The notes under the pieces are model-generated. The model did not search any database and was not told the origin of the DNA. It was given only the letters and a program-made list of their open reading frames with translations. DNA of 63,982 bases, the filler included, from Basidiobolus ranarum (lineage: Eukaryota): NCBI GenBank assembly GCA_040143965.1. It is 3 parts of 3 records of this genome, joined end to end, with 100 filler letters (N's around TTAATTAATTAA, not from the genome) between each part and the next. Parts side by side here need not be neighbours in the genome. Positions count along the whole stretch, not along the records: positions 22,928 to 45,676 come from JASJQH010000179.1; 2 more parts are not named here. One strand, written 5' to 3'. Each line of letters opens with the position of its first letter. Positions within the stretch are counted from its first letter, which is position 1. Of the stretch, positions 22,828-45,776 are shown piece after piece. The position numbers were made by a program, and so were the translations under genes.

Positions 22828-22927
22828 NNNNNNNNNNNNNNNNNNNNNNNNNNNNNNNNNNNNNNNNNNNNTTAATTAATTAANNNNNNNNNNNNNNNNN
22901 NNNNNNNNNNNNNNNNNNNNNNNNNNN
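22828..22927. other. Artificial contig/scaffold spacer
   Basis: 44 N + TTAATTAATTAA (stops in all six frames) + 44 N, exactly 100 bp. Confidence 0.97.
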
Positions 22928-23338
22928 ATTTAGGATAACATGTCACGCAAACAGATTGCTCATGTGAAATATTTAGATGCCAGAGCAGGCTTGACCATCC
23001 TCACCAATAGATATCACATTCAATTGGGGTAAACCGATAGATAAAATGATTGAATGGTTCTAAATATTACAGGATAATGGCGCTTTTGACTCTGGTCAAC
23101 GATTTGTATAACATTCTCAAAGTACAATAAGCTTGGCTGATTTTTAGCCTTCACCTTCCACAAACCGAATAGGTCACAAGGTGATATATGTATTTTGTCT
23201 TACCTGTTAAATAATACCTGAAAACCAAATATGTAGAGTATTTACTCGTTGCCAATCTCAAACCATTAAAGTTATAAAACGTGACATTGTTCAACAAAAA
23301 CTATCATCGGCCGTCAGTTCAGGATTATATCAAACTCT

Positions 23339-25740
23339 ATGCTATCTACCGACGATTTACATTATACCCCGGTGCGCCCAGGCAACCCAATACAACTGCT
23401 ACGAAAGAAAAAAAATGCTACGTCTAATGAAGAACTGGAAATAATTCCAGAGGCTCTAGAGATCCTTGGACGTATCACAGGACCAATTGTCGTTGTAGCA
23501 GTTGTTGGAACTATGAGACAAGTAAGCTTGACATACTAAGAAATGCTGCCTAGTCAAGAATTATCATTGATTTTCCCAAAGGGAAAGAGTTACTTATTAT
23601 CTAGGATGCTTGGACGTCAAGAGGCCTTTGAACTTGGACCTACTACTGATCCAAAGACATTTGGTATTTGGACATGGGACACTCCATATGAGGTGACAAT
23701 TAATGACCAAAAGGCTACGCTCATTCTACTAGACACTGAAGGTTACCCAAAATATACACCATAGGACCAAATACTTGATAGACAAAGCTAACAGATTGCT
23801 TCGTATTATAGGTCTAGGAGCTCCAAATGCTACCGAACAATGGTTAATATATGTTACGTGGTAAATCTGACTAAATGATAGCCATTGATCACTCAAAATA
23901 TTGTAGGGATACTAAAATCTTCGTACTTTCTCTTTTGCTGTCATCTCTCTTTATCTACAACACTCGTGGAGCTATCGATCGTGAAGCAATTCAAAAGTTG
24001 AGGATCATGCAGGATTTAACTAGGCTTATTGAATCCAGTAGCGAAGCAGTTGTAGATGAAGATTGTGATGACAATGCCGAGCAATTCTCTGAGTATTTCC
24101 CTGAGTGTATGTCGATTCATATATTTTCTTTCCTTGCCTAAAACTTACGTATAAACTATTCTCCAGTCTTGTGGGTTGTTAGAGACTTCAATCTCAAGTA
24201 TCCTGAAGGTGTCAATACGGCAAAGGAATATCTTCTTCGTGCTCTACGAAGTGAATCCGATACAATGGGCAAAAAGGGGATATCATTGAAAGCACGCCAA
24301 GAAATTAAAGATACCGATGAAATCAGAAAGTCCATCGTATATTATTTTGGTAACGCTGATTGCCATACTATGCCACTGCCAGTGAGTAATCCAGAGGAAA
24401 GTGGTTTCGTTGATATTCCAACAGCCATGCAAAATCTTCGTAAGTAAAGGGCTTTCTATCATAAAAATGCAAACTGAAATATTGACCTATCGATTATAGA
24501 TCTAATTCCATATGAGAGATTGTCAATGGCTTTTAGGTCTTCAATGGATGGATTTCTGGGAAAAGCGGGTGCTATGATGAATTTAAAACGTTTTAAAGAT
24601 GGCTCGCTTATGACTGGTGCGTCCTTTGCTCAACTTCTACAAGTTTATGTCCGGCAGATCAACACCAGTAATTGTATTAAGGTTGCTGATGCTTACCAAG
24701 GTATCACTATTTATCTTAACCTGGCATGGCTGTCTTTAAATTTACCAATTTGATTATTATCTGTAGCTGTGGTTGATCAGGTGACTAAAAAGGCCATAGA
24801 TTTGGCTATTAGTAACTATCGGTCTTGCATGGAGTCATTTGAAAACACACATCCTAACGAGCCCGTCATGGGCGAATTTCTAATTAGTAAACATATCGAA
24901 TTTTACAAAAAATCTCTTGATATTTTAAATCAAAATCTGTTAGGATCTAATGAGGAGGTGGAGAAGGTTCATTTGGAGCTGAAAGAGATGATCATTCAAC
25001 AAGACAAGGATAACCGAATATTAAATAGTTGCGTATTTTCGGAGTTTCATGAGAGAAACTCGGCTCTTATTGTTGCAAGAAATGAAATGTTGGTCAACGA
25101 TATTTGGCAAGGGCTAATTGGTAAGCGCTTAAATGGTTCAGAGAAGGATGAGTTCACTTCATATCAAGAGTTCATTGATGCTATCGGCGCATTTCAAAAC
25201 GAGTATGAAAGAAATTGTTTTCCAGGAGTGGAGGCTAAGCAAGTGTTCCTCAGATATCTGGAAAAAGTTGAGGAGAGTAAAGCCAGGCTCAATATGTGGT
25301 TCAAGCAAAAAGGAATGTTCGAAGAAAGATTGGCCAAGATACAGGAGGAGAATTTGCAAATCCAAAAACAAGCCAATCGCATTCAAATTGAGAATGAGAG
25401 TTTGATAGCCTCCATGAAGAGAATACATGAGGAGCATGAAGCCTCCTTAAATATGATGTGGGAGCGTATTGAAAGCAAGCATCAGGAGGCTGAGGAAGTT
25501 AGAAACCAACGGCAACTTCAATTCGAAAGGCAGCAGGAGGCATTTATCCAGATGAGAGATGACGACTTGGCTGAATTCAAGCAGCTTCAACGAGAAGAAT
25601 TGAAAGAACAGGAAAGAAACATGCAGCGAGATTACGATACAAAACTCAAGGCCCTCCAAGAGGACCATAAAAGATTAGAAGCCGAGAATCAGCAACTAAA
25701 AGCAAAGAAACAGAAAAAGAATTCTTGCAATGTTATGTGA
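23339..25740 (+). CDS. Guanylate-binding protein (GBP)-like large GTPase with C-terminal coiled coil and CaaX
   Basis: After splicing: VVAVVGTMRQ|GKSYLLSRMLG (G1), KTFGIW (G2), LLDTEG (G3), DTKIFVLSLLLSSLFIYN, WVVRDF (G4), then a helical stalk ending KAKKQKKNSCNVM*. Confidence 0.92.
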
Positions 25741-27202
25741 ACATCTGAATTCTCCCCATGTGATATTCTGGCATAGTGGTCGATAGCTAATATTAAATAT
25801 TATACTCTTGTCTTGATTGTATCATGTTTAAATTTCGTATGATCTTCATAACCTGTCTCTCAAACACAATACTACCATGCGTAATTTTAATAACATAATT
25901 GAAAACGTATGGATTCCACCAGTTCCATAATACTTGCGAGTTCGCGAAATAATCTTAATTGAATCATCACATAGGAAGTACTTACAATATTTCGGTCATT
26001 AATATCTCCTGTGCATTAGCTTATACGTAGTTGAAGATTCATTCCATGAGGCCAAAGAAAAAGATATGTTAACACACCAAAAAAAGATTGAGATTCATGA
26101 CCAAGACCAAGAAAAGAACTCTGATACATTCTCTTTTGTATACGCTTCGTTCAAGGGAACTCTAGCTCAATTGTACATACAGCTCTCAGATCCCGAGTGG
26201 CTCTTAATTAGCTCGTATCTGTAATTGACAAGTCGTGTGGGTGGGTAACAAGGCTTATTTGAAACCGATTCCTCCCAGATTATTATTACAATATATATAT
26301 ATATCGATATAATAGAACATATTCGATTTCTCCCAACCTGCTAATATCTATTTTCCCCTTCATTTAGTTCGTCTAATTAGGGTATATTTGGTTTAAAGTT
26401 CCCATGTATAAAGTATATTGATCAAAATACTTTCAAAGGTTGCCTACAAAAGAAGTCAGTTAAGCTCCAGTTGTTTTCAAAAATCATACCAAGTTCTCCT
26501 CATACTTTATATTTCACAGTGGCTGCTTTCAAGTTTCAATCGTAGTATGACCGAATCAAGCCACTTCATGTTTTGTTCCCAAACGATACCAATCCAGTTT
26601 AGTTTCTATCTTGAATGAGTGAATATCGTATTCGATATCATGATTTGCCGATTTTACTGATTACAAATAAATCCAAACCCCGTTGTTGCGCAGAGTATTT
26701 ATAAGGAGGTAATAGTTACATACATCCACATGTTCTGGATTCGAGGGTCAGTAATAGTCAGGTTTTATGGTAGCACCGATTTCAAGTACTTCTAGGAGTT
26801 TACCAATTTGATTCCGAAGGTGCTCGCCAGGCGACGAAGTACAACTTGCGTATGTTAGTTTGATATATGCTTCTGCTTAATTTATCTCATTCTCATTTTA
26901 TAGATATATGAGGTTGAATGAGTGCGTTAAATTTGTGCTATATTAACCAATAGTTAATTTCGCCAAAGGAAAGTACAAGGCCTGATATGATGAAAGTAGT
27001 GAGATAGTTTACTTTGATCAACTAAAGACAATATATTGAAAATATACGGTGGCAATTTTCCTAACGTAAACTACTGCAATTACTTGATAAAAGTACGCTC
27101 GCCATTTCGTAACCGATGATATTCAATGTTCAACCTGGTTCGCGAGATAAAAATAATGTTGCTTATTGATTAACAAAATTTGTCAATAAGCGATAACATG
27201 GT

Positions 27203-29493
27203 TTATGTTATGACACAGTCCCGTCGTTTCATATTTGCACTCCGATGATCAATCGTCATGCAGGTCGCTAAAAAATATTCGGCGGGAATTAAGAGATTTT
27301 GACCAGTCAGTTGAAAATCAACATTCATGACACTAGAATATAGCTCAATAGCTTCCGACGCTGTTACATCATCATAGTATGTGTCTTCTGTTAGAAGGTC
27401 TGGTAAAGCCAACGAAATATCAATGTTTGCATCGAATGTGATTCTCGCAATCTTGATATTTTCTAGAATCCTTGTAAATTCGATTGGATCCTGAACCATT
27501 TTGCGATAGCGATGCTCGCCAAATAATTTTTCTAGGAGCCTTAACACACGTCTATCAATCACAGCTGCACTTTTGTTCTCACCATTCTCTGAAACGGATA
27601 TAGATGGAACTCCACGTGATACCACAGAGGCAGGCTCTTTAGGTGCTACTGAAACAGACTCTTTAGGCCCATAAGATGCTTTTTTGGGGAGAAACAATGC
27701 ACGTCCATCAACCACTGTTGATTTCCTCTTCGCGCCATTCCCCGGAACAGATATAGATGGAACTCTACGTGATACCACTGATGCGCGCTCTTTAGGCCCC
27801 AAAGATTCAGATTCATCAAGAGTTGTCTTAGAAAAAGTACTGATCATCTGTTCAACTCTAGATCTATATGCCTGTTGCGCTATAAATCCCGTATCGGCAC
27901 CAAGCAGTACAGCACCTAGAAATTATGTATACTTAGAGAAATATTCATCAATACGGACAAACTTAAAATTACCTTTCACTATGGCTTCACCAGGCCTTTC
28001 TAAAACTATGATCCTAGCCTTGCCAAACTCTCGAGCAAATCGACTCTGAAGCTTACGGGAATTAGAAAACCCTCCAACTAATGAGATTTTACTATACGTC
28101 ATGGGTAAATAATGAGTGGTATCTCAAATGATGTTATTAGCTACCTAATGCCCTTATGCTGAGTAAGAATGCCTCTAACATGTTCCACTATCCGATTGAT
28201 CGTTGGTTCCATGCAGGTTTTGTAAAAGTAATCATTTGGGACTAAAAGGTTTTGACCAACTAAGCGAAGGTCTACATTGTGCTTCATGGAGTATCGCTCT
28301 GTAGCTTCAATAGCCGTTATCGTATCTTCATGTGTGTTAGCAGTTAAAAAATCTGGTACGACAAGTACATACTCGGAATCCTCATCAAATGCAATTTTCG
28401 CCATTTCGATGTCTTCTTGAATTTTTGCAAATCCAGAAGGGTCCCGAGTCATATTCTGATAACGATGTCTGCCAAATATTTCTTCTAAAAGTTTCAACAC
28501 ACGCCAATTTATGGCTGTCGATCCCCAGTTTCCACCATATGCTGGAATCACTGATCCATATACAGAGATTATTTGTTAGAGCAATTATCAAAGCTTCAGC
28601 AACGAATCATAAGCATACCTTCTTTGATCTTCGGTTGTAGATTAACTTCATGCACAGTAACATCAACACTTTCCCTACTGCAGTTACAAACCATGTGCAT
28701 AGAACCTAAGTTTAATCCTATATTGTTGGATTGAAATGTCCAAAGGAAAGCAGCGTCAGGCTCAAGTACTAATTGTAATGCGTAACCTTTTAGGTCTGCC
28801 AATTCTGCTGCATCTCTCATCACTTGCTTTTCTGCATCACTCCATATAACGGGAACAGTTATAATCCATTTGATTTCACACTCTAGTATGTCATTTGTTG
28901 ATCTGTTGATTTGTGCGAGAAGTGCTATGGAAGTAAATTATTAACATTTTGGATATCGGAGTGGGCATATCTTGGATATTACAATGCTTGATGTACTTCA
29001 AACTTTCAGATAATACAGTTTTAGCAGCAACCTTAATCCCATTAGCTGCAGAAATAAGCATATATCCCCTAACCGATGGCTTATATAAATTCCTTTTGAA
29101 ATGTTCGAAGTATCTGTCTTTGATTTCAGAACCATTCACTTTGCATTTCATTACTATGTCTTGATATTTCGTCTGAGCGGATTTCCCAAAAGCAATGAAC
29201 TTGTTGTTTTCATCTAAAAGCACAGCAGTCTCAGTTTTACCATATTTTCCATCAGCCCACGGACCATTAGAAAAAATGGAATCTCGAGCATCCGTTATCC
29301 CACCCTTTCCGGGGTAGGCAAAAGCATAACTAATATAAATAATTGGTTACGAATATTTTCATGAATTTCAGAACGATAGAATCTACCTTGTCTTATATGT
29401 ACCAAAATCGATTGCAGCAATACACTTGGCATCGGTAGGGCGAATATACTCCCTAAATGGATTAATCTTATCAGGCGCAACTCTTTTAAGCAT
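27203..29493 (-). CDS. HSPA12-like Hsp70 copy A: predicted ATPase-dead, with rearranged C-terminus
   Basis: Six exons appear open: CIAAIDFGTYKTSYAF, ITVPVIW, LVLEPDAAF, VCNCSRESVDVTVH, LVGGFS, IVKGAVLLG, then repeats and a second copy of the IDRRVL...YF..CM segment. Confidence 0.8.
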
Positions 29494-29537
29494 ATCAATG
29501 AAGTAGGAGATAATCTACTTTGCACTCTATATGACAA

Positions 29538-29553
29538 TGCTGACTTAAATACA
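29538..29553 (-). promoter_or_regulatory. Conserved TATA-like element upstream of the HSPA12-like genes (TGTATTTAAGTCAGCA)
   Basis: The same element lies ~35-60 bp upstream of the ATG of copies A (29538), B (34734), C (37691) and, in variant form, D (43152). Confidence 0.6.
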
Positions 29554-31412
29554 TTTTCAATTTTCCCTACAATATTCCATTTCCTATAGTTACTGCTAAC
29601 CAGCACAAGAGACTTGCTATTAACCTTGGTATTATAGCAAATTCAGTTTTAAATCGCATTGGATTTCTGTTGTTTATGATCTGTTGGTATTTTCTATTGG
29701 AAGGTACTACCATTGAACAGGATTTCCCAAAAGAACTTTTACCCATAGTTAGTGTCATTCAATAGAGAAATTAACTTGCACCTGCCTAGCACTGTCCCGA
29801 ATATTCCAGTTATATTCCAGCCTCGATATATCATATGATGAGATATGTAATCAGTACATTTCAAAATATACAGTCTCAAAGAATATTCCCGCTATAAGTG
29901 TGCCATGCTTGGGAGTATACTCATAAGATAAATCGCTGAATTAATGTAGCTAATAAAGTATATAAACGAGATCTGAAAACTGATTCAATCTTTGTGTTGC
30001 TAATTTACATACTCTGATAGTTTCATTATCACCAAGCCAAGTGGAATCAAACTTCTACTAGTGGACTCAATATGCCAATGGTTACATATCTACTTTAAAA
30101 CATAACGAGAATATTTTATCATTGAATCAGATGTGAGAATCTTGCCAATATGAAGGAAAGAACTATTTTCATATATATTGATATATTTAATTGAATTTCG
30201 TTAATTGGAAATTGCTTGCTTGATAGACCTAATTGGCCTGCAAGCCTGTCTATGGCCCAAATACACCAGCTTCATGATTCCTCCTGATATTTGTCACATA
30301 GCCTACTTAACGACCAAATAACAGTCTTTGATATTAAGAAAGTGATTTCGCCACTCTTTCGAATGTTAAATACATTAGGATTCGGCACTACAAGGGAATC
30401 AGTTTTGATCTCTGTTCTTTTAATCCTCCTAATTTTTATGAGCCATGCAATCATAATGACCAAAACTATAATATTAATAGTTAGGATCTTATAGAAAGTA
30501 GCATTTAGAATAATAATTCGGAATTTTAGTGCAAAAAGCATGTTGAGCTCAAAACTGAAATCCTACCTGTAATGAATATAAATGTATGTAATAGCACCAA
30601 GAATAACGTAAACACCATCATAATAACAAAGACTGTTATTAAGGCTCTACTTAGGCTATGTCGCATATATCAAGTTAATACATGGAAGGAATGTAGAGAT
30701 ATTATCTAGCTAGTTGATACCTATCTCGTAGTCTTTTTTATCTCGTTATATGAGCATTTCTTTATCATCACTTTTAGTGAGTTAACATAGCCAAGTAAGC
30801 ATCCAACTTTTATGCAGTATATTACATGTGGGTTAGAACTATGAATACAACCACTAACCACTTTTGCCAGTGATTATGAAAGTACCACCGACCTGCGTAC
30901 AGATAGTGAGTACTACTTGTAGATATTTTATTAACAGTTGAATGAATATCCCCAAACCTCCAAGAAAGTATTTCATGTTGATCTTAATGGTTTTCACTAG
31001 AAAACAATGAATTCTTAGCGTTCGTTTTTATCATGTAAGACCGGGCTCAATAAATATTCATGCCAAGACAAATATTTCAAATTCTGTACTGTTAGCAAGC
31101 AATCAAAAATCATTATGTATTCTACCCTATGTTTCAACACTTCAGCTGTACTTCCATATGGTTGTAACCTGTGGCATGACCGTCATCAATTTACTGATAT
31201 CAGTCTGTATACTGCATACATATAGGCACCCTGAGCTACGCTTCGCAACTGTCATCACTAAATTCTCTAGTTACTCCCAAAGCGACGGAGTGACTCTAAA
31301 ATTCCTGGCATCCGATATTTTTGCTAAAGAAATTTAGTTAGATATTGTTGTGCAACCATATATAACAAAATAGTAGGTTTCAGTTAATATGAAACGGTAC
31401 GTTGTAATTAAT

Positions 31413-32588: not shown

Positions 32589-34694
32589 CTACTCATTAAA
32601 TGTTAAACGGACTTGATTGCTTTTTCCTTTAGAATTTACAGCCTTGACGAGTATTTCTGAGGAAAAAAGCATGCTGCAAGTAATTCTAGAATTATTATGT
32701 TAATACCGTGATATCGCAACTGTACTGGGTTATAGTCAATACCTATCATATTTTCCGTCGCATTCCAAATCAAATGAACCGGCTTTCCTAACATGATTGT
32801 CGGTAACAAACTTCACCTCATGCCTGTTCACTTTGTAAATTGCGATATTTACGTTGCTCTGATTATCCTCTACCGCCATATATTCACGGACAATTTCTTC
32901 CCCGACTTCAACAATCTCATTCATTGTCACAAACGGATCGAACACGTCCCGACAATGCTTTGAGCCATCACTAGCGTAAAATATCTTCTCTTCTGGGTGC
33001 ACTGCTGGGTTGAATTCAACGCCAATGCTGCTTCCGTAGGTAAATCTTGCTTTACGTTGGGTCACTAACCCCGGATCGGCTCCAAACAACACAGCGCCTA
33101 TCAGTTTTCATGCTTAGTTTAAATATGTTCCCTCATATAAACAACAGAGATATCACCTTTCATTATAGCTTCTCCTGGCATATCTGGAACAATGATTTTA
33201 ATCTCCTTAAAATCTTGAGTGAATCGATTTTGGAGCGAGCGACAATTGGCAAAATTTCCTACTAAAACGACCTTACTTAAGATCAAGAATCAATATTTGC
33301 TGTACAGAATATTACATATGGTTGATGATACCTTATATCCTTATGCTTATGAATAACACCTTTAACGTGATTCATTGTATCATTAATTGTTGGCTCCATA
33401 CAAGTTTTGTAGAAATAATCAGCGGGAATTGAAAGATTCTGACCCACTAGATGAAGCTCCACATCTTGAGCCTTTGAGTATCTTTTTACGGCTTCTACAG
33501 TGGGTAATCCATCATTATCCAATCCAGATGTCAAGGAATCCGGCAAAACCAGTACAATATCGGTATCTGCGTCAAATGTGATTTTTGCCGCATCGATATC
33601 TTCTGCAATCCTCGCATATCCGAACGGATCTTTAGTCATATTGTTATAACGCTGTTTTCCAAATATTTCTTCTAAAAGTTGCAATACACGCCGATCAATC
33701 GCTGTCGATCCCCAATTTCCTCCATTGGCTGGAATTGCTAATTCATATACAGAGATTCTATGTTAGAGCAATCATCATAGAGACTAGTTCACAGAACAGC
33801 CCTCATTATTAAGGAGTCACAACCATACCTTCTTTCACTTTTCTTTGTGAATACTCAACTTCATGCACAGTAACATCGATGGTTCCCCCACCACAGTCAC
33901 ATACCATGTACACAGAACCTGGTTCCATTCCTAGATCATTGGATTGAAGCACCCAAAGAGAAGCAGCTTCAGGCTCAAGGGCTAGCTGTAGAGCCGCACC
34001 ATGTAAACCTGCCAACTCAGCCGCATCTCTCATTACTTGTTTTGCTGCATCACTCCATATAGCGGGAACTGTTAGAATCCATTTGATTTCACTCTCTATT
34101 ATACCTTGGGTTGATTTGTTTATTTGAGCGAGAAGTACTATGGGTGGAAAAGATGTTAGACTTTGAATATGCGAGTGCTTGTTTAAAGGTATTACCTTCT
34201 TTGATGAACTTTAGACTTGCCGAGAATACAGTTTTAGCGGTAACTTTAACTCCATTAGCTGCAGGAATAAGCATTTTCCCACTAATTGAGGTCTCATATA
34301 AATTCATTTTGAAATATTGGAAATATCTTTCTTTGATTTTAAGACCACCTGCTTGACTTCTCATAGCCATGGCTCGATACTTTGTCTGGGCCGATTTTCC
34401 GAAAGCGATAAACTTATTATTTTCGTCTAGAAGTAGGGCGGTTTTAGTTTTACCCTCCTTTCCATCAGACCATTGACCATTAGTAAAAACGGAACTTCGA
34501 GCCTCTGTAATCCCGTCAGTCCCGGGAAAAGCATAAGCAAAGCTATAACAAGCATTTAATAGCATTCTAGTGAACTCAAGTGTGGTGGGTACCTACCCTG
34601 TACCAGATGTACCAAAATCTATGGCAGCAACGCACTTGGCATTAGTAGGACCAATGTATTCACTAAATATATCAGCAGTAGCTCTTTTTAGCAT
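32589..34694 (-). CDS. HSPA12-like atypical Hsp70, copy B
   Basis: CVAAIDFGTSGTG|YSFAYAF, KTKTALL, WILTVPAIWSDAAKQVMRDAA, LALEPEAAS, CDCGGGTIDVTVH, LVGNFAN, GAVLFG..P..VTQRKARFTYG, ends FNE*. Confidence 0.92.
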
Positions 34695-35496: not shown

Positions 35497-37646
35497 TTAT
35501 TCATTGAATGTCAGACGGACTTGATTACTTTGCCCTCGGGAATTCACTGCCTTGACTAATATTTCAGAGGAGAATAGCATACTAAAATTGACACTAACAT
35601 CCGCATGTTATTATGTTAATTATACAAATAATATATGTATATATGTATATGTCTATTATTACCTATCCTCCCGTCCAGAGCATTCCAAACTAAATGAACC
35701 GATTTGCTCAACCAGAGTATCTGTGATGTATTTCACATCTCGTCTAGGTGCTTTGTAAATTATAAAGTCCATAGTAGATTGCCGTTTTTCCACTGTTTGG
35801 TATGTTCTTGTAACCTCTTTACCTACTTCTAAATTTTCACCCATCAAAACAAACTTGGCAAATATATCTTGGCAATATTTTCGGCCGGCTTTACTCCTAA
35901 ATGATTTATATTCATCATGAACGGCCTCGTCAAACACAGCACTGATTCTGTGTCCGTATGTAAATCTGGATTTCCGTTGCGTCACCAACCCAGGGTCAGC
36001 GCCAAATAGTACGGCACCTAAAAGTGTTATTTAGACATGGAAATATGCATATAAAGAGAAGCAAGGCACTACCTTTTACTATAGCTTCACCAGGAGGGGT
36101 GGGAACTTTTACTTCAATATAGCGAAACTCCTGGATAAATTGTTTCTGAAGCTGGCGGCAATTGGCGAAATTTCCCACTAAAATGATTTTACTACAAAAA
36201 AATTGTTAAATAATGTGTAGTATCCCAGATATTGTTCTTAACTACCTGATCCCCGTATTATTTTTGACAATATTCCTAACATGTGTCACTGTTTGCGTGA
36301 TCGTAGGCTTCATACAGTTTTCGTAAAAATAGTCAGCTGGAATCATAAGATTTTGACCGATCAGGAAAAACTCGGCATTCTTTTTCTCACAAAATCTTTC
36401 CATAGCTTCAGCGGCAGTTGTTGTATCGCCATGCGTTTTAGCAGTTAAAGAATCTGGAACAACAAGTACAATATCAGTATCTTCATCAAATGTAATTTTA
36501 GCCATTTCAATGTCCTCTTTAATCTTCAAAAATCCTAATGGGTCCTCCGTCATATTCAGATACCGATTTTTGCCAAAGATTTCTTCTAAAAGTTGCAATA
36601 CGCGTTGATCTATTGTTGTCGATCCCCAGTCCCCTCCGTCGGCTGGAATTACTAATTTATAGGCAAAGGCTAATTACTAAAACAATCCTCGCTACTTCCA
36701 TAGAAACTTGCGATCCTACCTTCTTTCACCTTTCTTTGCGAGTAGTCAACTTCATGCACAGTAACATCGATAGTTCCCCCACCGCAGTCACATATCATGT
36801 ACTTAGAATCTGGGTCCATGCTTAGGTCATTGGATTGAAGTGCCCAAAGGGAGGCAGCCTCTGGCTCAAGCGCTAACTGCAAGGCAACACCTTTTAAACC
36901 TGCCAATTCTGCTGCCTCTCTCATCACTTGCTTTGCTGCATCACTCCATATTGCGGGAACTGTTAGGACCCATTTGATATCACGCTCGGATATACCATTT
37001 GTTGATTGGTCAATTTGGGCGAGAAGGGCTATGGGGGTAATATACGTTAGCATTTTGGGTATATTAGTGACTATAGTTGGAGATAATACTTTTCTTAATG
37101 TATTTCAAACTCTCAGAAAATACAGTTTGAGCAGCAATCTTAACTCCGTTAGCTGCAGAAATAAGCATCTTTCCACTAACGGATGTCTTATACAAATTCA
37201 TTTTGAAACATTCAAAATATCTTTCTTTGATTTCAGGTTTAGATGAACTTGCGTTGCCTTTCATGACCATGGCTTGGTATTTGGCTATGTCAGATTTATA
37301 TTTCATTGCTATGGATTGATATTTCTTCTGGGCCACTTTTCCGAAAGCCATAATCTTATTATTTTCATCTAAGAGTAAAGCGGTCTTAGTTTTACCATCC
37401 TTTCCATCAGCCCATGGACCATTGGAAAATAATGCGGTTCGAGCGTCTTTAATCCCGTCAGATCCAGGAAAAGCATAAGCATAGCTATAAAAAATATTTA
37501 GTCTTATTCCAATGAATTCAAGTATGATGCGCACCTTACCCTGTACCAGATGTGCCAAAATCGATAGCGGCGACACATTTCGCATTGGTGGGTCCAATAT
37601 ACTCGTCAAATACGTTAGCAGTAGTAGTAGTAGCTCTTCTGATCAT
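35497..37646 (-). CDS. HSPA12-like atypical Hsp70, copy C
   Basis: Same motifs and intron positions as copy B (IDFGTSGTG, VPAIWS, EPEAAS, DCGGGTID, GNFAN, RKSRFTYG), ends FNE*. Confidence 0.92.
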
Positions 37647-38996: not shown

Positions 38997-40061
38997 TTAA
39001 CTTATGCATACGAGCTGCATCTTTGTTGGCTGACGAGCACCGTGCGAATCAATTTGGTAGATGGCAGGTAGAACGGGAAACGGAACTTCTACAGCAGGTA
39101 CAATTACACCCTTCAGTAAAAATGAAGCATTCGTTTGTTGTTGCGTAAAGTCATATTCAACTTTTGGTTCTACCAATGAGAGTAACAAAATTGTATCGAT
39201 AAGACCTTCCAGATGAGCTTGCACGCCATCAAATAGTTGTTCAGTTTGGATATTACTTAGTACAGCAGTACATATCCTTTTATGCATATCAGACTGTAAA
39301 CTGGAGTTTTCGAAGTTGGCAATGATGATTGATTTGACGTACATTAGATTGCGCTGGTAAAAATCTGAATCATCGGCTTCCTCATGACCCAAACAGAGTA
39401 AAGTATGAGTAATATGCTCAAACATTGTTCTAAACGTCATTCCAAAGATTTCCTCAAGAAGCTTGGAAAGATACATCACTTGATGTAAAACGTTTGTCGG
39501 TTGCGTTTTTTGTGCCGTAAGAGAAGAAAAAACAACCGATTTGATTTTATTTTCGAACTTCTTAAATCGTGGCACTAAGTTTTCCAGTGTCACTGTTTGC
39601 AGCTGACCATTTGCTGTGACGAGCTGACTAAGTAATCGGGCGGTCTCATTCTGGGCCTTGCTTAACTCTACGGTCAATCTTTTCTGGACACCTGTTAATT
39701 CGGTCTTCTCATGTTGAATATATAGGTTAACTTCGTTTTGAAACTTGCTGCCTTGCTTATGTTGTTCATGCAACATTTCATACATTCTATTCATCTTCTG
39801 TTCCAATGTGCCAATGCTTATGGCGACGTTAGTACTACTTCCGCAACACGACTGCTCCTTAGGGCTAGATTTTTCTCTTAGCACACCTGGACTGGTTTCG
39901 ACTTTCTTTTGCCTGTTCTGACTGAGGCCACCTGGTTGGCCTTTGGGGTTAGCATAGTATTCAGGCATATGCCCTTTTCTTTCTGGATAGGAATTCGGTG
40001 TTTGCATATTAGGAGCCTCTTTGGGGTTACTGCCAGTCAAAGGGTTTTTCATAGTGCTCAT
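38997..40061 (-). CDS. Uncharacterised intronless coiled-coil protein CC1, paralog of 43977-44981
   Basis: Long ORF (open up to 40175; MSTMKNP start preferred). Disordered N-terminus, coiled coil, and a C-terminal domain shared with CC2. Confidence 0.8.
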   Translation of the reverse strand: MSTMKNPLTGSNPKEAPNMQTPNSYPERKGHMPEYYANPKGQPGGLSQNRQKKVETSPGVLREKSSPKEQSCCGSSTNVAISIGTLEQKMNRMYEMLHEQHKQGSKFQNEVNLYIQHEKTELTGVQKRLTVELSKAQNETARLLSQLVTANGQLQTVTLENLVPRFKKFENKIKSVVFSSLTAQKTQPTNVLHQVMYLSKLLEEIFGMTFRTMFEHITHTLLCLGHEEADDSDFYQRNLMYVKSIIIANFENSSLQSDMHKRICTAVLSNIQTEQLFDGVQAHLEGLIDTILLLSLVEPKVEYDFTQQQTNASFLLKGVIVPAVEVPFPVLPAIYQIDSHGARQPTKMQLVCIS

Positions 40062-41116
40062 CGTGCTTAGAATAATTGGAGATATGAGTAAAATAGAAAC
40101 CCTTTTTATGAACGTTGGAAAATCTCCGGAGTCAACCTGAATGCTACTGTTTTCTCTATACAGGAATTGTAACATTCAACTGGCACTAAATTTAATTAGT
40201 GTAGTGCAGCGGTTACAATGTATATATGACCAAAATCCGTGAGTTAACTCTTCGAACTAATGACACGGTTTTACAATCCTGAATCTTGCACTGATAGCCA
40301 AAAGTGTCACGCCGGTTCTTTGTATGGAAATACAGTTTCAACTCGACTTGTGTGAGTTCTGGTATATATATACAGGATTGCTCTTGGTACAAGCTCAAGT
40401 ACGATCCAATCGAGTTAGACTTCCGAGATTTTGCCCCACAAACTAGAATTGCCATCATATTTACTAATAAACTTTTCCTTGTTGGAATAATGAATTCATA
40501 ATATACTTGAATATACTTTACTGAATGAAGTTTCTAACGTACTGTGCTCTTTGAAAAAGCATAGAATTCGCGATCTGGTAGGAATAAAAACTAAATCAGT
40601 TTACAATCTTATTTCTATCTTTTTAAGCGAAAGCTGGCTATGGTGCCCACCTTGTATGTTGCAAAGCGTTTTTAATTACCGATTGAAATTAGTCCAAGCA
40701 GTGATTTAGGACTATGGTAAAGATTACCATATTCGTTCCTTATCTTTTCAGTTAGTGTAAATCAAATACATTTAATCGTCAAAGGCTAGAGGTATATATA
40801 TATATATAACAGCAGAATAGATTCGATATTTGAAGAGAGACATTGCTACAGGAGATACAATGCAACTATGTTAAGGGAGCTTTGAATTTTAATTTTTCAT
40901 AATCCGAAAGCAATTAAACCATAGGCAATTCCTATTAGTAATATTTTGTGTTTGTAAATGTAGCATTCACCTCTTGTGCGCATTGTATACTAAGCGAACT
41001 AATGTAATGATAGTAATTAATCAGTGTAAAGAAAGTTCTTGGGATGTAAGAGCGTCAATATATTTAAAATTTGTTTCATTGCCAATACTTAATGAAGTAT
41101 AAATTAGATTGGGTTT

Positions 41117-43117
41117 TTACTCATTAAATTTTAACCGGATCTGGTTTGTCTCGCCACTAGAGTTTTCTGCTTTGACTAATATCTCTGAAGAGAATATCAT
41201 GGTGTATTTGATCCTAGAATATAGCTAGTTTAACAATGAGTATAGAGGTATTGCTTTCATTATAGTTACCTATCATTACTTCCCTTGCAGGGTAATGTGA
41301 AAGATCCTATCTGTTTGACCTGAAAGTCAGTGGTAAATTTTACTTCACGCCTTGCCACTTTGAATATTTGAAAACCAACTGTGGTATTATCATCATCCAA
41401 AGCATAATATTCCCGGGAAACTTCCTCACCTACCGCCATCTCCTCTCCCATGATTGCAAGTCGATCAAAGATATCATTGCAGTGCTTAGTTCCTCTCTTT
41501 GTTGTTATGGCTTTTGATTCTGGGTGTATACTTTCATCGAAAACGTGAGCCACTCGTTCTCCGTAGGTAAAGCGCAATTTACGAGATGTTACTAGCGCAG
41601 GGTTAGCTCCAAATAAGACAGCACCTTTCATTATAGCATCTCCAGGTAAATTTGGGATGATAACATCGACAGACCGGAAAGATTCGATGAATTTAGTCTG
41701 AAGTGGTCGGCAGTTGGCGAAATTTCCTACTAAAACAATTTTGCTAGATAACAAGTGAGTAAAAATATGAGGTATAGTCATCTATACCAGTAGATACCTT
41801 ATTCCGGGGTTTCGACCTAATATTCCCTTGACGTGAGCTACTGTCGAATTAATGGTTGGCTCCATGCATGTCTTGTAAAAGTAAGTTGCAGGAATTAAAA
41901 AATTGGAACCCAACAGCTGGAAGTCGGCATTTTCATTACTAGAGTAGAGGGATACTGCTTCTTCAACAGAAAGTTCATCATCAGGTGTTTGTGATGCTAA
42001 TGATTCGGGAAGTACCAGAACAATATCAGTATCGATATCAAATGATATTTTGACTGATTCGATATCCTCAAGTAGCTTTGTATATCCCATCGAATCCTGA
42101 AGCATGCGCTTATAGCGCTGCTGTCCAAATATCCTTTCTAAAAGAGCTAGCACTCGTCTATCAATAGCTGTTGATCCCCAGTCTCCTCCAGTTGCAGGTA
42201 TTGCTATTGAGTATCGGGTTAGTCTTGGTAAAAGGTTGGATTACTTCTTGATTCCTGTTAATACCTTCTTTGACCTTTCGCTGCGAAGAATCCACTGCAT
42301 GGACAGTGACGTCAATAGTTCCGCCTCCACAATCACAAACCATATAGGTAGAACCTACGTCTACACGTAGGTCATTAGATTGTAAAACCCACAAGGACGC
42401 AGCCTCCGGTTCAAGAGCCAATTGTAGTGCTACACCCCTCAAACCTGCTAATTCTGCAGCTTCTTTCATCACTTGCTTTGCAGCATCACTCCATATAGCT
42501 GGGACTGTTAAAATCCATTTGATATCACTTTCATCCATGTGCCCACTGGATTTGGTGATTTGGTCCATCAATGCTGAAATTGATTTTCGAATTAATTTTC
42601 AAACATCATACATCAATGACAATTACTTAAAAACTTACACTTTTTGATGTATTTTAAACTTTCGGAAAATACTATAGTCGCCGAAACTTGGTCACCATTT
42701 TTAGCTTTTATTTTCAAACCTGCATTCACCGAGTCTGTGTAGAGATTCATTTTAAAATACTCAAAATATCTCCCTTTATTTTGAAATGCCATAGCTCGAT
42801 ATTTTGTTTGCGCCGCTTTTCCAAACGCTATAAATTTGTTGTTCTCATCCAAGAGTAATGCCGTCTTGGTTTTCCCGGGTCTTCCATCAGCCCAAGGACT
42901 GTTAGTATAAACGGAGCCTCGTGCATCGCTTATTCCATCCCAACCTGGAAATGCAAACGCATATCTATTCATATGTTAGTTTACAAGGCCTTTTGCTCAA
43001 TATTAGGTTGAAGACTCACCCGGTACCAGATGTTCCGAAATCAATGGCAGCTACGCATTTTGCAGTTGTTGGGCCTGTGTATTCCCTGAATATATCTGGA
43101 GTTGGACCTTGAAGCAT
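41117..43117 (-). CDS. HSPA12-like atypical Hsp70, copy D
   Basis: MLQGPTPDIFREYTGPTTAKCVAAIDFGTSGTG|YAFAF, VPAIWS, EPEAAS, DCGGGTID, LVGNFAN, RKLRFTYG, ends FNE*. Confidence 0.92.
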
Positions 43118-43976
43118 AATACAGATTATTTTAGATACAGTAACTTGCCAAGGCTGATATTTAAATAGTTAACACCACTTAATGAAATTGCACGGAGTTA
43201 AACAATTGCGTTCATAATATAGAAATCACCACGGTAATAACACTACGATATGAGGTAGTTTCCTTTGGCCGTACAAATGGTGTACGTTGCCCCAAATAAT
43301 AAATATCTTTGTATCACAGTATATGGCGAACTGAACTAGCAGTATTCGTGAGTTCTTGATCGATAATTCACCGGATGTACATCATTTGGGTTGTGCCTGT
43401 GTGAGATGATACAAAGCATTAACTGTTTAAAAAACATTCTAGCCCATTGTTTTCTAAATACTTCCCACCGTTGAAGTACCTTCTTTATTATAAGCATATG
43501 AATTATAATTCGACAATAGATTTTGTCATCTTGAATGAGATTATGCCCCTAATTGAATATAGAATATTCTTGGGCTAATAAAAGAGTCTTGCTAATTTCT
43601 TGTAATATTCAGGTATTTCTAATTTGGAAACATCAGCGATAGAATTAAAATATCCTCCACAAGTACTATTCTTAGTCACATGAGGCAATGGGACACCAGG
43701 ATTGAGAAATTAATGTACCAACAGATCATGACCACAATATAAGAAGGACGCTGTTTCCAACCTACCAGATCAGAGTTCACACACCAATGGCTACACCTAA
43801 CGATTTACTGCCAAATAATGGCATGCAATTAGACGTGAGTAGAGGAGATCAATCCATTGAAGGCAAGAAAGACAATAATGGCACTTCGGTAATATAGTCA
43901 TCTGATTTTTCATATATAGCATGTATTAAATCGTTCTTCTGAATTTTAGACTTTAGACTATCTACATCAAGTAATT

Positions 43977-44981
43977 ATGGGGAAGCCACAGACGAACTAT
44001 AAAAATCACCATGAAAGCAATGAAGGCAATCAAAACTTGATAAGAGAACTTGAACGAATGCAATCACGAATTACTAGTTTGGAGAGGAGCAATGCTAACA
44101 TTGAAGAAAAACTACTATACATTGGCTTAGAGTCCCATGCTGCTAAAGGGTTTAAAAATCACAACGAAGACAAACAAAGAATCAAATTTCTGGAGAAGGA
44201 ATGCGCAAACTTGTGCAAGCAAAACTCATCTTTGAAAGATTATGAAAAGAAGTACAACAATCTCAAAACTCAGATTCAGGAATTTCAAAAAAATTACGAT
44301 GGTCTACTAGCCGCTTGTGACATGCAAGCTAAACAATTGGAGCGTGAGAAAAATGAAAATGCTAATTTACGAAGCCAACTTGTAACTGCTGATGGACAAG
44401 TGAAGGAAGTCACCATAGAGAGCATTTTTGGGTCCCTAAAAGCTTTTGAAAGTAAGGTCACCCCAGTCCTATTTAAGATCGGAAAGACTCCAAATATCTG
44501 TCATGATCTTGATGCGTTCTCCAAAGCCATGCAACAACTATTCAATACAACTTCCGCCTTTGCGGCTAGCCATGTTGAAGACACCATGGCTAAGTTAGGC
44601 CACCTTCGCGATGATAAGTCGCAACTGTGCGTTCGTAATCGAGTTTATGTTCGAACAATTATTATCGCTAATCTTGAAAATTCCGGTTTAATGCAACAGA
44701 TGTGTGATGAGGTTCTTAAAGGACTGGCTGAAGAATACCACACCAATAGCTTATTTTCTCATATTCTAATGCATCTGCCTAATTTAGTAAATGCAGCATT
44801 GCTTCTTGCTCTAGTAGAGCCACAGGTTGCTACATCATTCAAGTTGAGAGGAGACTCTATTGCCATGCTGAAGGATTTCGCTGGAAGCAAAAGGCCAATT
44901 CCAATTCTTCCTGCCATCGATCAGGTTGGGATTAACGGCGATTTTCAGCCGACCAAGATGGTTATGCGGTATATTAACTAG
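43977..44981 (+). CDS. Uncharacterised intronless coiled-coil protein CC2, paralog of 38997-40061
   Basis: 334-aa ORF with a heptad-rich N-terminal half; C-terminal half aligns with CC1 (SQLVTAxGQ, RNxxYVxxIIIANxENS, LLLxLVEPxV, PxLPAIxQ, QPTKM). Confidence 0.85.
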   Translation: MGKPQTNYKNHHESNEGNQNLIRELERMQSRITSLERSNANIEEKLLYIGLESHAAKGFKNHNEDKQRIKFLEKECANLCKQNSSLKDYEKKYNNLKTQIQEFQKNYDGLLAACDMQAKQLEREKNENANLRSQLVTADGQVKEVTIESIFGSLKAFESKVTPVLFKIGKTPNICHDLDAFSKAMQQLFNTTSAFAASHVEDTMAKLGHLRDDKSQLCVRNRVYVRTIIIANLENSGLMQQMCDEVLKGLAEEYHTNSLFSHILMHLPNLVNAALLLALVEPQVATSFKLRGDSIAMLKDFAGSKRPIPILPAIDQVGINGDFQPTKMVMRYIN

Positions 44982-45356: not shown

Positions 45357-45676
45357 TCAATCACTAAAGCTGATTCGTATTTCCTTTGTCTCTCCTTGAG
45401 AGTTCACAGCTTTGGCTAATATTTCCGAGGAAAATAGCATACTAAATTTTACGCTATATAATATATTAGTTCCAGGATCTATGCTGATATTTCGAAAATT
45501 GATTACCTATCATCTGGGCCACACCAAACTATGTCGAAAGTGCCGACTTTTTGAACTCTAAAATCAGTTGTGTACATTATTTGGGGCCTGGGTGCCTTGA
45601 AGATTTCAAACGTAATTGACTTTTGCTCCAACTCAATGGCAAAATATTCTCTAGTTATTACTTCGTTAGGTTCCAA
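45357..45676 (-). CDS. HSPA12-like Hsp70 copy E, 3' end only (truncated by gap)
   Basis: EVITREYFAIELEQKSITFEIFKAPR...TTDFRVQKVGTF|...KFSMLFSSEILAKAVNSQGETKEIRISFSD*, with the same last intron as copies B-D. Confidence 0.85.
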
Positions 45677-45776
45677 NNNNNNNNNNNNNNNNNNNNNNNN
45701 NNNNNNNNNNNNNNNNNNNNTTAATTAATTAANNNNNNNNNNNNNNNNNNNNNNNNNNNNNNNNNNNNNNNNNNNN
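45677..45776. other. Artificial contig/scaffold spacer
   Basis: 44 N + TTAATTAATTAA + 44 N. Confidence 0.97.

Follow-up and report, generated by a model that had tools for sequence, protein, structure and literature searches.

The locus described here raises the question of what becomes of an Hsp70-like gene whose catalytic machinery has been damaged beside tandem paralogs that have kept theirs, and in particular whether such a copy is still maintained or is being lost. It lies in a 63,982-nucleotide stretch of DNA from the fungus Basidiobolus ranarum (GenBank assembly GCA_040143965.1), referred to below as the window, within the part of it (positions 22,928 to 45,676) that comes from record JASJQH010000179.1. 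Four genes, copies A to D, lie there in tandem on the minus strand, and a different public contig carries one more full paralog, the fifth, E (K7432_016230, partial). The evidence tips somewhat towards copy A being a retained, non-catalytic paralog under relaxed constraint, a prediction drawn from sequence and structural models. In this reading it is an old, rearranged member of a tandem HSPA12-like cluster. Its nucleotide-binding domain is still confidently foldable, its phosphate-2 loop has been replaced one residue at a time, and a tail with another lobe-IIB segment has taken the place of its beta-rich C-terminal domain. The layout of the gene itself is as follows.

27203-29493, minus strand: whole coding region of copy A, with the ATG at 29493 and the TAA at 27203-27205.
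29493-29387, 29329-28983, 28924-28619, 28550-28145, 28091-27973 and 27915-27206, minus strand: the exons of copy A, an exact spliced match.

These are exactly the limits and the strand given in the preliminary description of the locus, which had proposed copy A as an intact reading frame with its ATPase motifs destroyed. Its six exons are separated by five GT..AG introns of 53-68 nucleotides, at positions used in B and C, and its product is 100% identical to the public model K7432_004900 (hypothetical protein, Basidiobolus ranarum, 665 amino acids). Not one stop, frameshift, broken splice site or lost start is present in the 665 codons and five introns. The view that all exons and splice sites are intact therefore holds for the frame and the introns, but it fails for the last exon, where the C-terminal domain has been replaced.

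PF00012 (Hsp70) is the only Pfam family seen in copy A (25.0 bits over residues 147-434, cut-off 20.6), and the match is the weakest of the set, with B to E scoring 48-59 bits. An AlphaFold2 model, which leans on the alignment of relatives, has a predicted local distance difference test (pLDDT) score of at least 83 in each 10-residue block of residues 21-440, and mostly above 90. Foldseek matches this model to DnaK/Hsp70 domains (expect value ~1e-17, template-modelling score on the target up to 0.77), with DnaK, BiP and Ssz1 among the proteins matched. The upper-ranking relatives outside B. ranarum by sequence are HSPA12-type proteins, ~30-35% identical. They include chytrid (Entophlyctis, Nowakowskiella) and Jimgerdemannia proteins at expect values of 1e-98 to 1e-62 and 34-35% identity, some of the chytrid ones carrying the name 'Heat shock 70 kDa protein 12A', and animal proteins named HSPA12A at 1e-42 and below and ~30% identity, with many HSPA12A/B proteins among the matches. 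The stretches AIDFGT, TVPAIW, LEPEAA, LVGGF and KGAV are signatures common to the copy A family and HSPA12-type proteins. Judged by its sequence, copy A is an HSPA12-like, atypical, lid-less Hsp70 gene, one of four in tandem.

The phosphate-2 loop of Hsp70 proteins comprises a Mg-coordinating aspartate, a Gly-rich phosphate loop and a catalytic threonine. For DnaK, D194 is described as being among the residues that hold Mg-coordinating waters, and replacement T199A as routinely used to prevent hydrolysis (PMC12406271). Alignment of the family profile to E. coli DnaK (2kho) places AIDFGT on phosphate-1, LEPEAA on connect-1, DxGGGTxD on phosphate-2, GGxWG on DnaK LGGEDFD and LVGGF on the adenosine motif, which confirms the mapping to phosphate-1, connect-1 and phosphate-2 that had been suggested. 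The four changes first reported in copy A, DFGTSGT to DFGTYKT, VPAIWSDAAK to VPVIWSDAEK, EPEAAS to EPDAAF and DCGGGTID to NCSRESVD, are all present, in the following segments.

28662-28685, minus strand: phosphate-2 loop N232-C-S-R-E-S-V-D239, encoded by AAC TGC AGT AGG GAA AGT GTT GAT.
29387-29409, minus strand: phosphate-1 segment D29-F-G-T-Y-K-T-(S36), with the DFGT core kept and S33Y, G34K and G36S changed.
28746-28763, minus strand: connect-1 E206-P-D-A-A-F, with Glu-Pro kept, E208D (conservative) and S211F.
28827-28856, minus strand: VPVIWSDAEK (A177V, A183E), corresponding to DnaK VPAYFND.

Destruction of the ATPase motifs is borne out at phosphate-2 only; the DFGT core of phosphate-1, the catalytic lysine and the Glu-Pro of connect-1 have been kept. 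In B and C the phosphate-2 codons read GAC TGY GGT GGG GGA ACY ATC GAT, and D232, G234, G235, G236 and T237, each conserved in 96-99 of 102 relatives, are N, S, R, E and S in copy A. Each of the five replacements (D232N, G234S, G235R, G236E, T237S) takes one in-frame base change, four of them G to A, which indicates point-mutational erosion and not an indel; a single-event origin of NCSRES by frameshift or indel was rejected on the same grounds. Among 262 relatives of at least 400 amino acids the pattern D.GGGT.D is perfect in 242, carries one mismatch in 5 and two in 7, and is gapped in 7, and copy A, departing at 5 of the 6 checked positions, is the sole such case. Six of the seven columns in residues 232-238 at which B, C, D and E agree are changed in copy A, compared with 32 of 191 such columns outside this stretch (Fisher p=2e-4), and such a cluster of changes arose anywhere in 27 of 5000 permutations, which suggests that the phosphate-2 loop was released while the rest of copy A was still partly held.

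Elsewhere in the nucleotide-binding domain, family members have T, S, A or Y at position 33, Y being found in paralog E too, which nevertheless retains DCGGGT; position 34 is variable, and G36S alone touches a conserved column (G in 88 and A in 10 of the 102). S211F and A177V are unusual replacements of residues that are not catalytic, the change of VPA to VPV being mild. Retained are K114 (K in 96 of 102), E206-P207 (95 of 102), connect-2 G429-A430 and the GG of the adenosine motif, and K114 is what we take to be the catalytic lysine equivalent to Hsc70 K71, an equivalence assumed and not aligned. Overall, copy A retains 33 of the 40 family columns conserved at 90% or more, including D29, G31, T32, K114, E206, P207, D239, G259, G263, G395, G396 and G429.

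Selection on the copy A branch was estimated with a codon model of our own (GY94-type, F3x4) over the 429 gap-free codons of A to D, on all three topologies. The ratio of non-synonymous to synonymous rates (omega, or dN/dS) is 0.46-0.47 on that branch and 0.11 on the background. A likelihood-ratio test favours a separate omega for copy A over a single ratio (28.6, p=9e-8) and also separates it from 1 (5.6, p=0.018; 5.2-5.9 across topologies, p=0.015-0.022), so that the branch value, proposed at the outset as a check on the gene, is not near 1. The bootstrap 95% range is 0.29-0.68, with none of 60 replicates reaching 1, and the best topology, AC|BD, agrees with the protein tree. Removal of the ten phosphate-1 and phosphate-2 columns leaves omega at 0.43, and the first half of the gene gives 0.40, again below 1 (p=0.022). 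By these estimates the protein is evolving about four times faster than its neighbours and more slowly than the neutral rate; the relaxation is gene-wide and about four-fold, and the branch as a whole is not neutral. There is an extra cluster of changes at phosphate-2, but the omega that remains when the motifs are removed, the flat spread of changes given below and the exchange of a whole domain show that the loss was not aimed at catalysis alone.

The open frame limits how long copy A could have been free of selection. An omega of 0.46 produced by a history of constraint followed by neutrality would take a neutral phase of ~40% of the branch (dS, the synonymous divergence, of 0.35), or ~0.14 substitutions per site. 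In neutral simulations of the 445-codon core, the probability that no stop arises is 0.05 at a divergence of 0.05, 0.003 at 0.10 and 0 of 2000 runs at 0.15; at 0.02 the core gives 0.29 and the complete gene 0.18. Since the frame is open, a long neutral phase is rejected and a very recent death is allowed, and it is in this restricted form, as a very young pseudogene, that the second option of the preliminary description survives. By mean BLOSUM62 score, the lineage-specific replacements in copy A (+0.18) are less severe than random single-base changes would be (-0.36 expected) and more severe than those in paralog E (+0.64).

Beyond connect-2 the gene departs from its paralogs, and the relevant features of its 3′ end are these.

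27206-27915, minus strand: exon 6, with a normal GAVLLGAD start (the end of connect-2), ~43 weakly family-like residues and then an aberrant tail.
27700-27796, minus strand: unit 1 of a repeat in the tail, PKERASVVSRRVPSISVPGNGAKRKSTVVDGR, a direct repeat with unit 2.
27547-27643, minus strand: unit 2 of the tail repeat, running into fragment T.
27251-27601, minus strand: fragment T, covering residues 534-650, in which the exon-4 segment (lobe IIB) occurs a second time.

The beta-rich C-terminal domain (~130-150 amino acids after connect-2) is present in B, C and D and absent from copy A. The ~43 residues that open exon 6 show weak similarity to that domain in C (39.5% over 43 amino acids, expect value 0.003), and searches of 25500-27950, downstream and in other frames, with tblastn and the family profile found no remnant of the domain beyond them. 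A profile match of exon 6 to positions 428-534 (10.5 bits) was set aside as untrustworthy because the profile alignment includes copy A itself. The two repeat units form a 153-nucleotide in-frame tandem duplication, 78% identical over 97 nucleotides when the tail is compared with itself by blastn; Tandem Repeats Finder reported no repeat in the tail. Their differences number 8 synonymous and 13 non-synonymous (pN/pS, the ratio of non-synonymous to synonymous differences per site, 0.60), over 32 codons that are too few for use. Fragment T can be aligned with exon 4 of all four copies over 115 codons without gaps, with 46-49% amino acid identity to each, and matches the family profile at an expect value of 4e-12, and this even distance implies that it came from an anciently separated paralog. 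The GGxWGS stretch that opens it is also degenerate (NGENKS), and later exons of its donor were found neither below the stop nor in other frames. With the tail as query, copy A alone was matched among 2264 candidates. The T branch has an omega of 0.21 (p=2e-4 for a value below 1). The tail of copy A has stayed open, with a duplication that is 22% diverged and a fragment T that is free of indels and has this low omega.

The lineage appears to be old. In a protein tree that joins the five paralogs with 15 outgroup rows, hand-picked from ~100 matches and without the closer chytrid and Mucoromycota proteins, the Basidiobolus paralogs form a 100/100 clade in which copy A branches first with weak support (79/73), and terminal branches are 0.39 for A, 0.20-0.24 for B to D and 0.59 for E. 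Over shared columns the identity of copy A is highest with C (60.6%) and B (59.5%), lower with D (53.4%) and lowest with E (45.9%), while B, C and D are 65-70% identical to one another. The adenosine motif reads LVGGF in copy A and in 98 of 102 relatives and LVGNF in B to E, and the retained LVGGF together with the first-branching position argues for an old lineage, not a recent copy. This tree placed the Basidiobolus clade beside animal HSPA12, and the horizontal transfer from animals that this raised was dropped because an exhaustive search gave closer chytrid and Mucoromycota proteins.

Upstream of the start codon, two elements are common to A, B and C.

29524-29603 (-110 to -31), minus strand: upstream block of copy A, common to A, B and C.
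29544-29553, minus strand: TATA-like TGTATTTAAG within that block, common to A, B and C.

The block is 68.5% identical between A and B, where introns are 61% identical and shuffled sequences 52% (standard deviation 3, maximum 59%). The evidence from it is weak, no more than a hint.

A retained, non-catalytic copy A would not hydrolyse ATP and would probably bind it poorly, and it could not hold clients as its paralogs presumably do. Were it to survive as such a protein, its value would lie in surfaces of the nucleotide-binding domain, for example for a binding partner or co-factor shared with B, C and D, and through these it might serve as a partner, a competitor or a scaffold. Of the two options first offered, a retained non-catalytic protein is the better supported, but the particular role of sensor, decoy or inhibitor has no direct support.

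A plausible, if less probable, alternative is that copy A is on its way out, a redundant tandem duplicate that is non-functional or nearly so and was fully released only recently; it would have lost the C-terminal domain by rearrangement and the catalytic loop by point mutation. Several observations argue for it and against retention. The loss of a catalytic loop together with a C-terminal domain resembles a decaying duplicate, there are four or five intact paralogs that could take over its function, and the relaxation is four-fold and extends over the whole gene when the motif columns are left out. Omega in the second half of copy A is 0.54 and inseparable from 1 (p=0.23), and the value below 1 for the whole branch depends on a p of ~0.02, at synonymous sites already saturated in part (dS of 0.87-1.02 for comparisons within A, B and C, 0.95 between A and B, and saturated for D). 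Counted over columns where the other four paralogs agree and arranged by rising conservation in the family, changes in copy A are flat (14 of 77, 7 of 34, 10 of 52 and 7 of 35), whereas those in paralog E fall away (26 of 89, 10 of 37, 3 of 45 and 0 of 28); the most conserved class against the rest is 7/35 vs 31/163 for copy A and 0/28 vs 39/171 for E. Such a flat distribution is the pattern expected from lost function. Without the phosphate-2 cluster the top class becomes 2 of 30, so part of the flatness is due to that loop, with the middle class still high. The tail that replaces the C-terminal domain has no relatives, and its pLDDT is below 50 for most of residues 448-665 (for all of 492-665), where the alignment has no depth; the low omega of fragment T may predate its attachment to copy A. 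No orthologue of copy A in another strain or species was found in protein databases, by exhaustive HMMER search or in a metagenome scan (37 pattern matches, 0 confirmed), the closest proteins in the databases being the in-genome paralogs at 46-61%, with ~34-35% outside the genome. A short neutral phase is also compatible with the open frame, given the stop-free probabilities of 0.29 and 0.18 at the smallest divergence simulated. Against decay stand an omega that is below 1 whichever of the three topologies is used and in every one of the 60 bootstraps, the rejection by the open frame of a neutral phase long enough to yield 0.46, the preservation of the splice sites and of the TATA-containing upstream block, and the age of a tail duplication that, at 78% identity, is still in frame.

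A more specific form of retention, in which copy A is a working pseudo-ATPase that has traded its client-binding domain for a lobe-IIB module and acts on or competes with B, C and D, is put forward only tentatively and we consider it rather doubtful. Such a protein might occupy a shared partner or a nucleotide-exchange surface, and it could be a regulator or decoy in what is possibly a stress- or immune-type cluster of this early-diverging fungus, to judge from the guanylate-binding-protein (GBP) homologue and the duplicated coiled-coil genes described below.

It is very improbable that copy A is still an ATPase or nucleotide-dependent chaperone working through a non-canonical phosphate-2 loop. 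Phosphate-1 D-x-G-T, Lys114, Glu206, the adenosine-motif GG and connect-2 are kept, and one or two deviations from the loop pattern are tolerated in 12 of the 262 relatives. On the other side, five of six phosphate-2 positions are replaced, including the equivalents of DnaK D194 and T199, the residues singled out in PMC12406271; Arg and Glu stand in place of two of the three glycines, no other relative among the 262 approaches this loop, and the domain that would couple ATP to clients is gone. It is scarcely credible that the unusual 3′ end results from faulty assembly or annotation and hides a real gene with a normal C-terminus: the window does contain N runs (22828-22927 and 45677-45776) and the public models of B and C do lack the last exon, but no N lies inside or beside copy A, the identical 665-amino-acid product is also given by a public record listed independently, on a contig of 22.7 kb, the searched interval 25500-27950 holds nothing of the domain beyond the ~43 exon-6 residues, and the normal start of exon 6 continues into the tail without a break in the frame.

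Taken as a retained, non-catalytic paralog, copy A can be set beside three kinds of known system. HSPA12-type proteins are, to our knowledge, the least understood branch of Hsp70. Their nucleotide dependence is described as still debated, and binding of human HSPA12A to its partner SorLA as responding to ADP/ATP (PMC6345817); a partner binding of that responsive kind is unlikely in copy A. The likeness to HSPA12A/B-type proteins lies in the top-scoring outside relatives, in the shared signature stretches and in an architecture that pairs a nucleotide-binding domain with a beta-rich C-terminal domain and lacks a helical lid, as in the model of copy D. Copy A differs from them in having lost a phosphate-2 loop that is kept perfectly in 242 of 262 relatives, and in having a second lobe-IIB segment where the C-terminal domain should be.

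Ssz1 of the yeast ribosome-associated complex is described as an Hsp70 homologue preserved by selection, with no ATP hydrolysis and a reduced C-terminal part, which works through partner binding and has retained both ATP binding and a beta substrate-binding domain (PMC7083937). It establishes that an Hsp70 homologue need not hydrolyse ATP to be maintained, and chains 5mb9_B, 6sr6_C and 4gni_B are among the fold matches of the copy A model. In copy A, by contrast, the phosphate loop is wrecked, the beta domain is gone and no J-protein partner is known or visible, and because its sequence relatives are HSPA12-type it is not an Ssz1/HSPA14 orthologue; the comparison would therefore apply to mode of working only. 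Decaying tandem duplicates and unprocessed pseudogenes share with copy A the lost catalytic residues, the lost domain, the raised omega and the redundant neighbours, but copy A lacks any stop, frameshift or broken splice site, its omega is below 1 and its frame is open beyond neutral expectation. Copy A belongs among known kinds, those of dead or relaxed enzyme paralogs and of non-hydrolysing Hsp70 relatives.

A naturally dead copy beside live ones would, if it is under selection, provide a natural control for functions that need ATP turnover or the C-terminal domain. The finding is a modest one, concerning one relaxed paralog in one genome, and its main value is that a first reading has been corrected: one motif is destroyed and the gene is not intact. 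What had been observed at the outset was confirmed in part and its interpretation was supported in part, while the statements that all motifs are destroyed and that the gene is intact fail. A literature search, which did not cover supplements, found no paper on the copy A gene.

The paralogs and neighbours of copy A in the window are as follows.

32739-34694, minus strand: copy B (K7432_004901), with canonical motifs.
35662-37646, minus strand: copy C (K7432_004902), with canonical motifs.
41120-43117, minus strand: copy D (K7432_004904), full length, 569 amino acids.
~32592-32700 and ~35500-35607, minus strand: further last exons of B and C, downstream of the public models.
45360-45676, minus strand: C-terminal fragment of a further HSPA12-like copy, ending at an N run (45677-45720 / 45733-45776).
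23285-25740, plus strand: GBP homologue, convergent with copy A, with the Pfam GBP N-terminal domain.
38997-40175, minus strand, and 43950-44981, plus strand: coiled-coil-like paralogous genes, the first between C and D and the second upstream of D.

For D, AlphaFold2 yields a model of high confidence along its whole length (mean pLDDT 92.7), in which residues 431-564 are all-beta, and this model matches lid-less two-domain DnaK chains (expect value 1e-27, ~590 alignment columns). Together these indicate that the normal architecture of the family is a nucleotide-binding domain and a beta domain without a helical lid; the family C-terminal part is itself only weakly similar to the beta substrate-binding domain of 2kho (8.6 bits). 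The public models of B (546 amino acids) and C (564 amino acids) end short of the last exon (...FSSEILVKA...NQVRLTFNE), which the D model has, and in the C model the splice sites add AFAYKL before exon 4 and omit the connect-2 stretch GEAIVKG. The 'live' copies B to E have an unusual change of their own, LVGNF, in a nucleotide-contact motif (B exon 5, 33275-33157). Paralog E has no match above 85% identity in the window; the fragment at 45360-45676 begins about where the partial E model stops and may be its missing end. The N runs at 22828-22927 and 45677-45776 each consist of two 44-N runs split by 12 bases.

The GBP N-terminal domain matches three consecutive open reading frame pieces (expect values 1.9e-13 to 6.5e-6), and the C-terminal piece at 24754-25740 gives a weak GBP_C match (20.9 bits, under the cut-off). 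The position of a GBP homologue next to HSPA12-like genes in tandem may point to a locus of stress or immune type. The two coiled-coil-like genes are 36% identical over 217 amino acids, with N-terminal parts that are coiled-coil-like, and a Pfam search of the pair gave no family above the cut-off; the Hsp70-like cluster may have been duplicated as two-gene units together with these genes. Finally, the nearest non-Basidiobolus relatives, from Entophlyctis and Nowakowskiella, are 1085-1212 amino acids long, and two of these chytrid proteins carry the HSPA12-like domain in the C-terminal half, with two matched stretches. These long chytrid relatives may represent versions of the family with fused or tandem domains.

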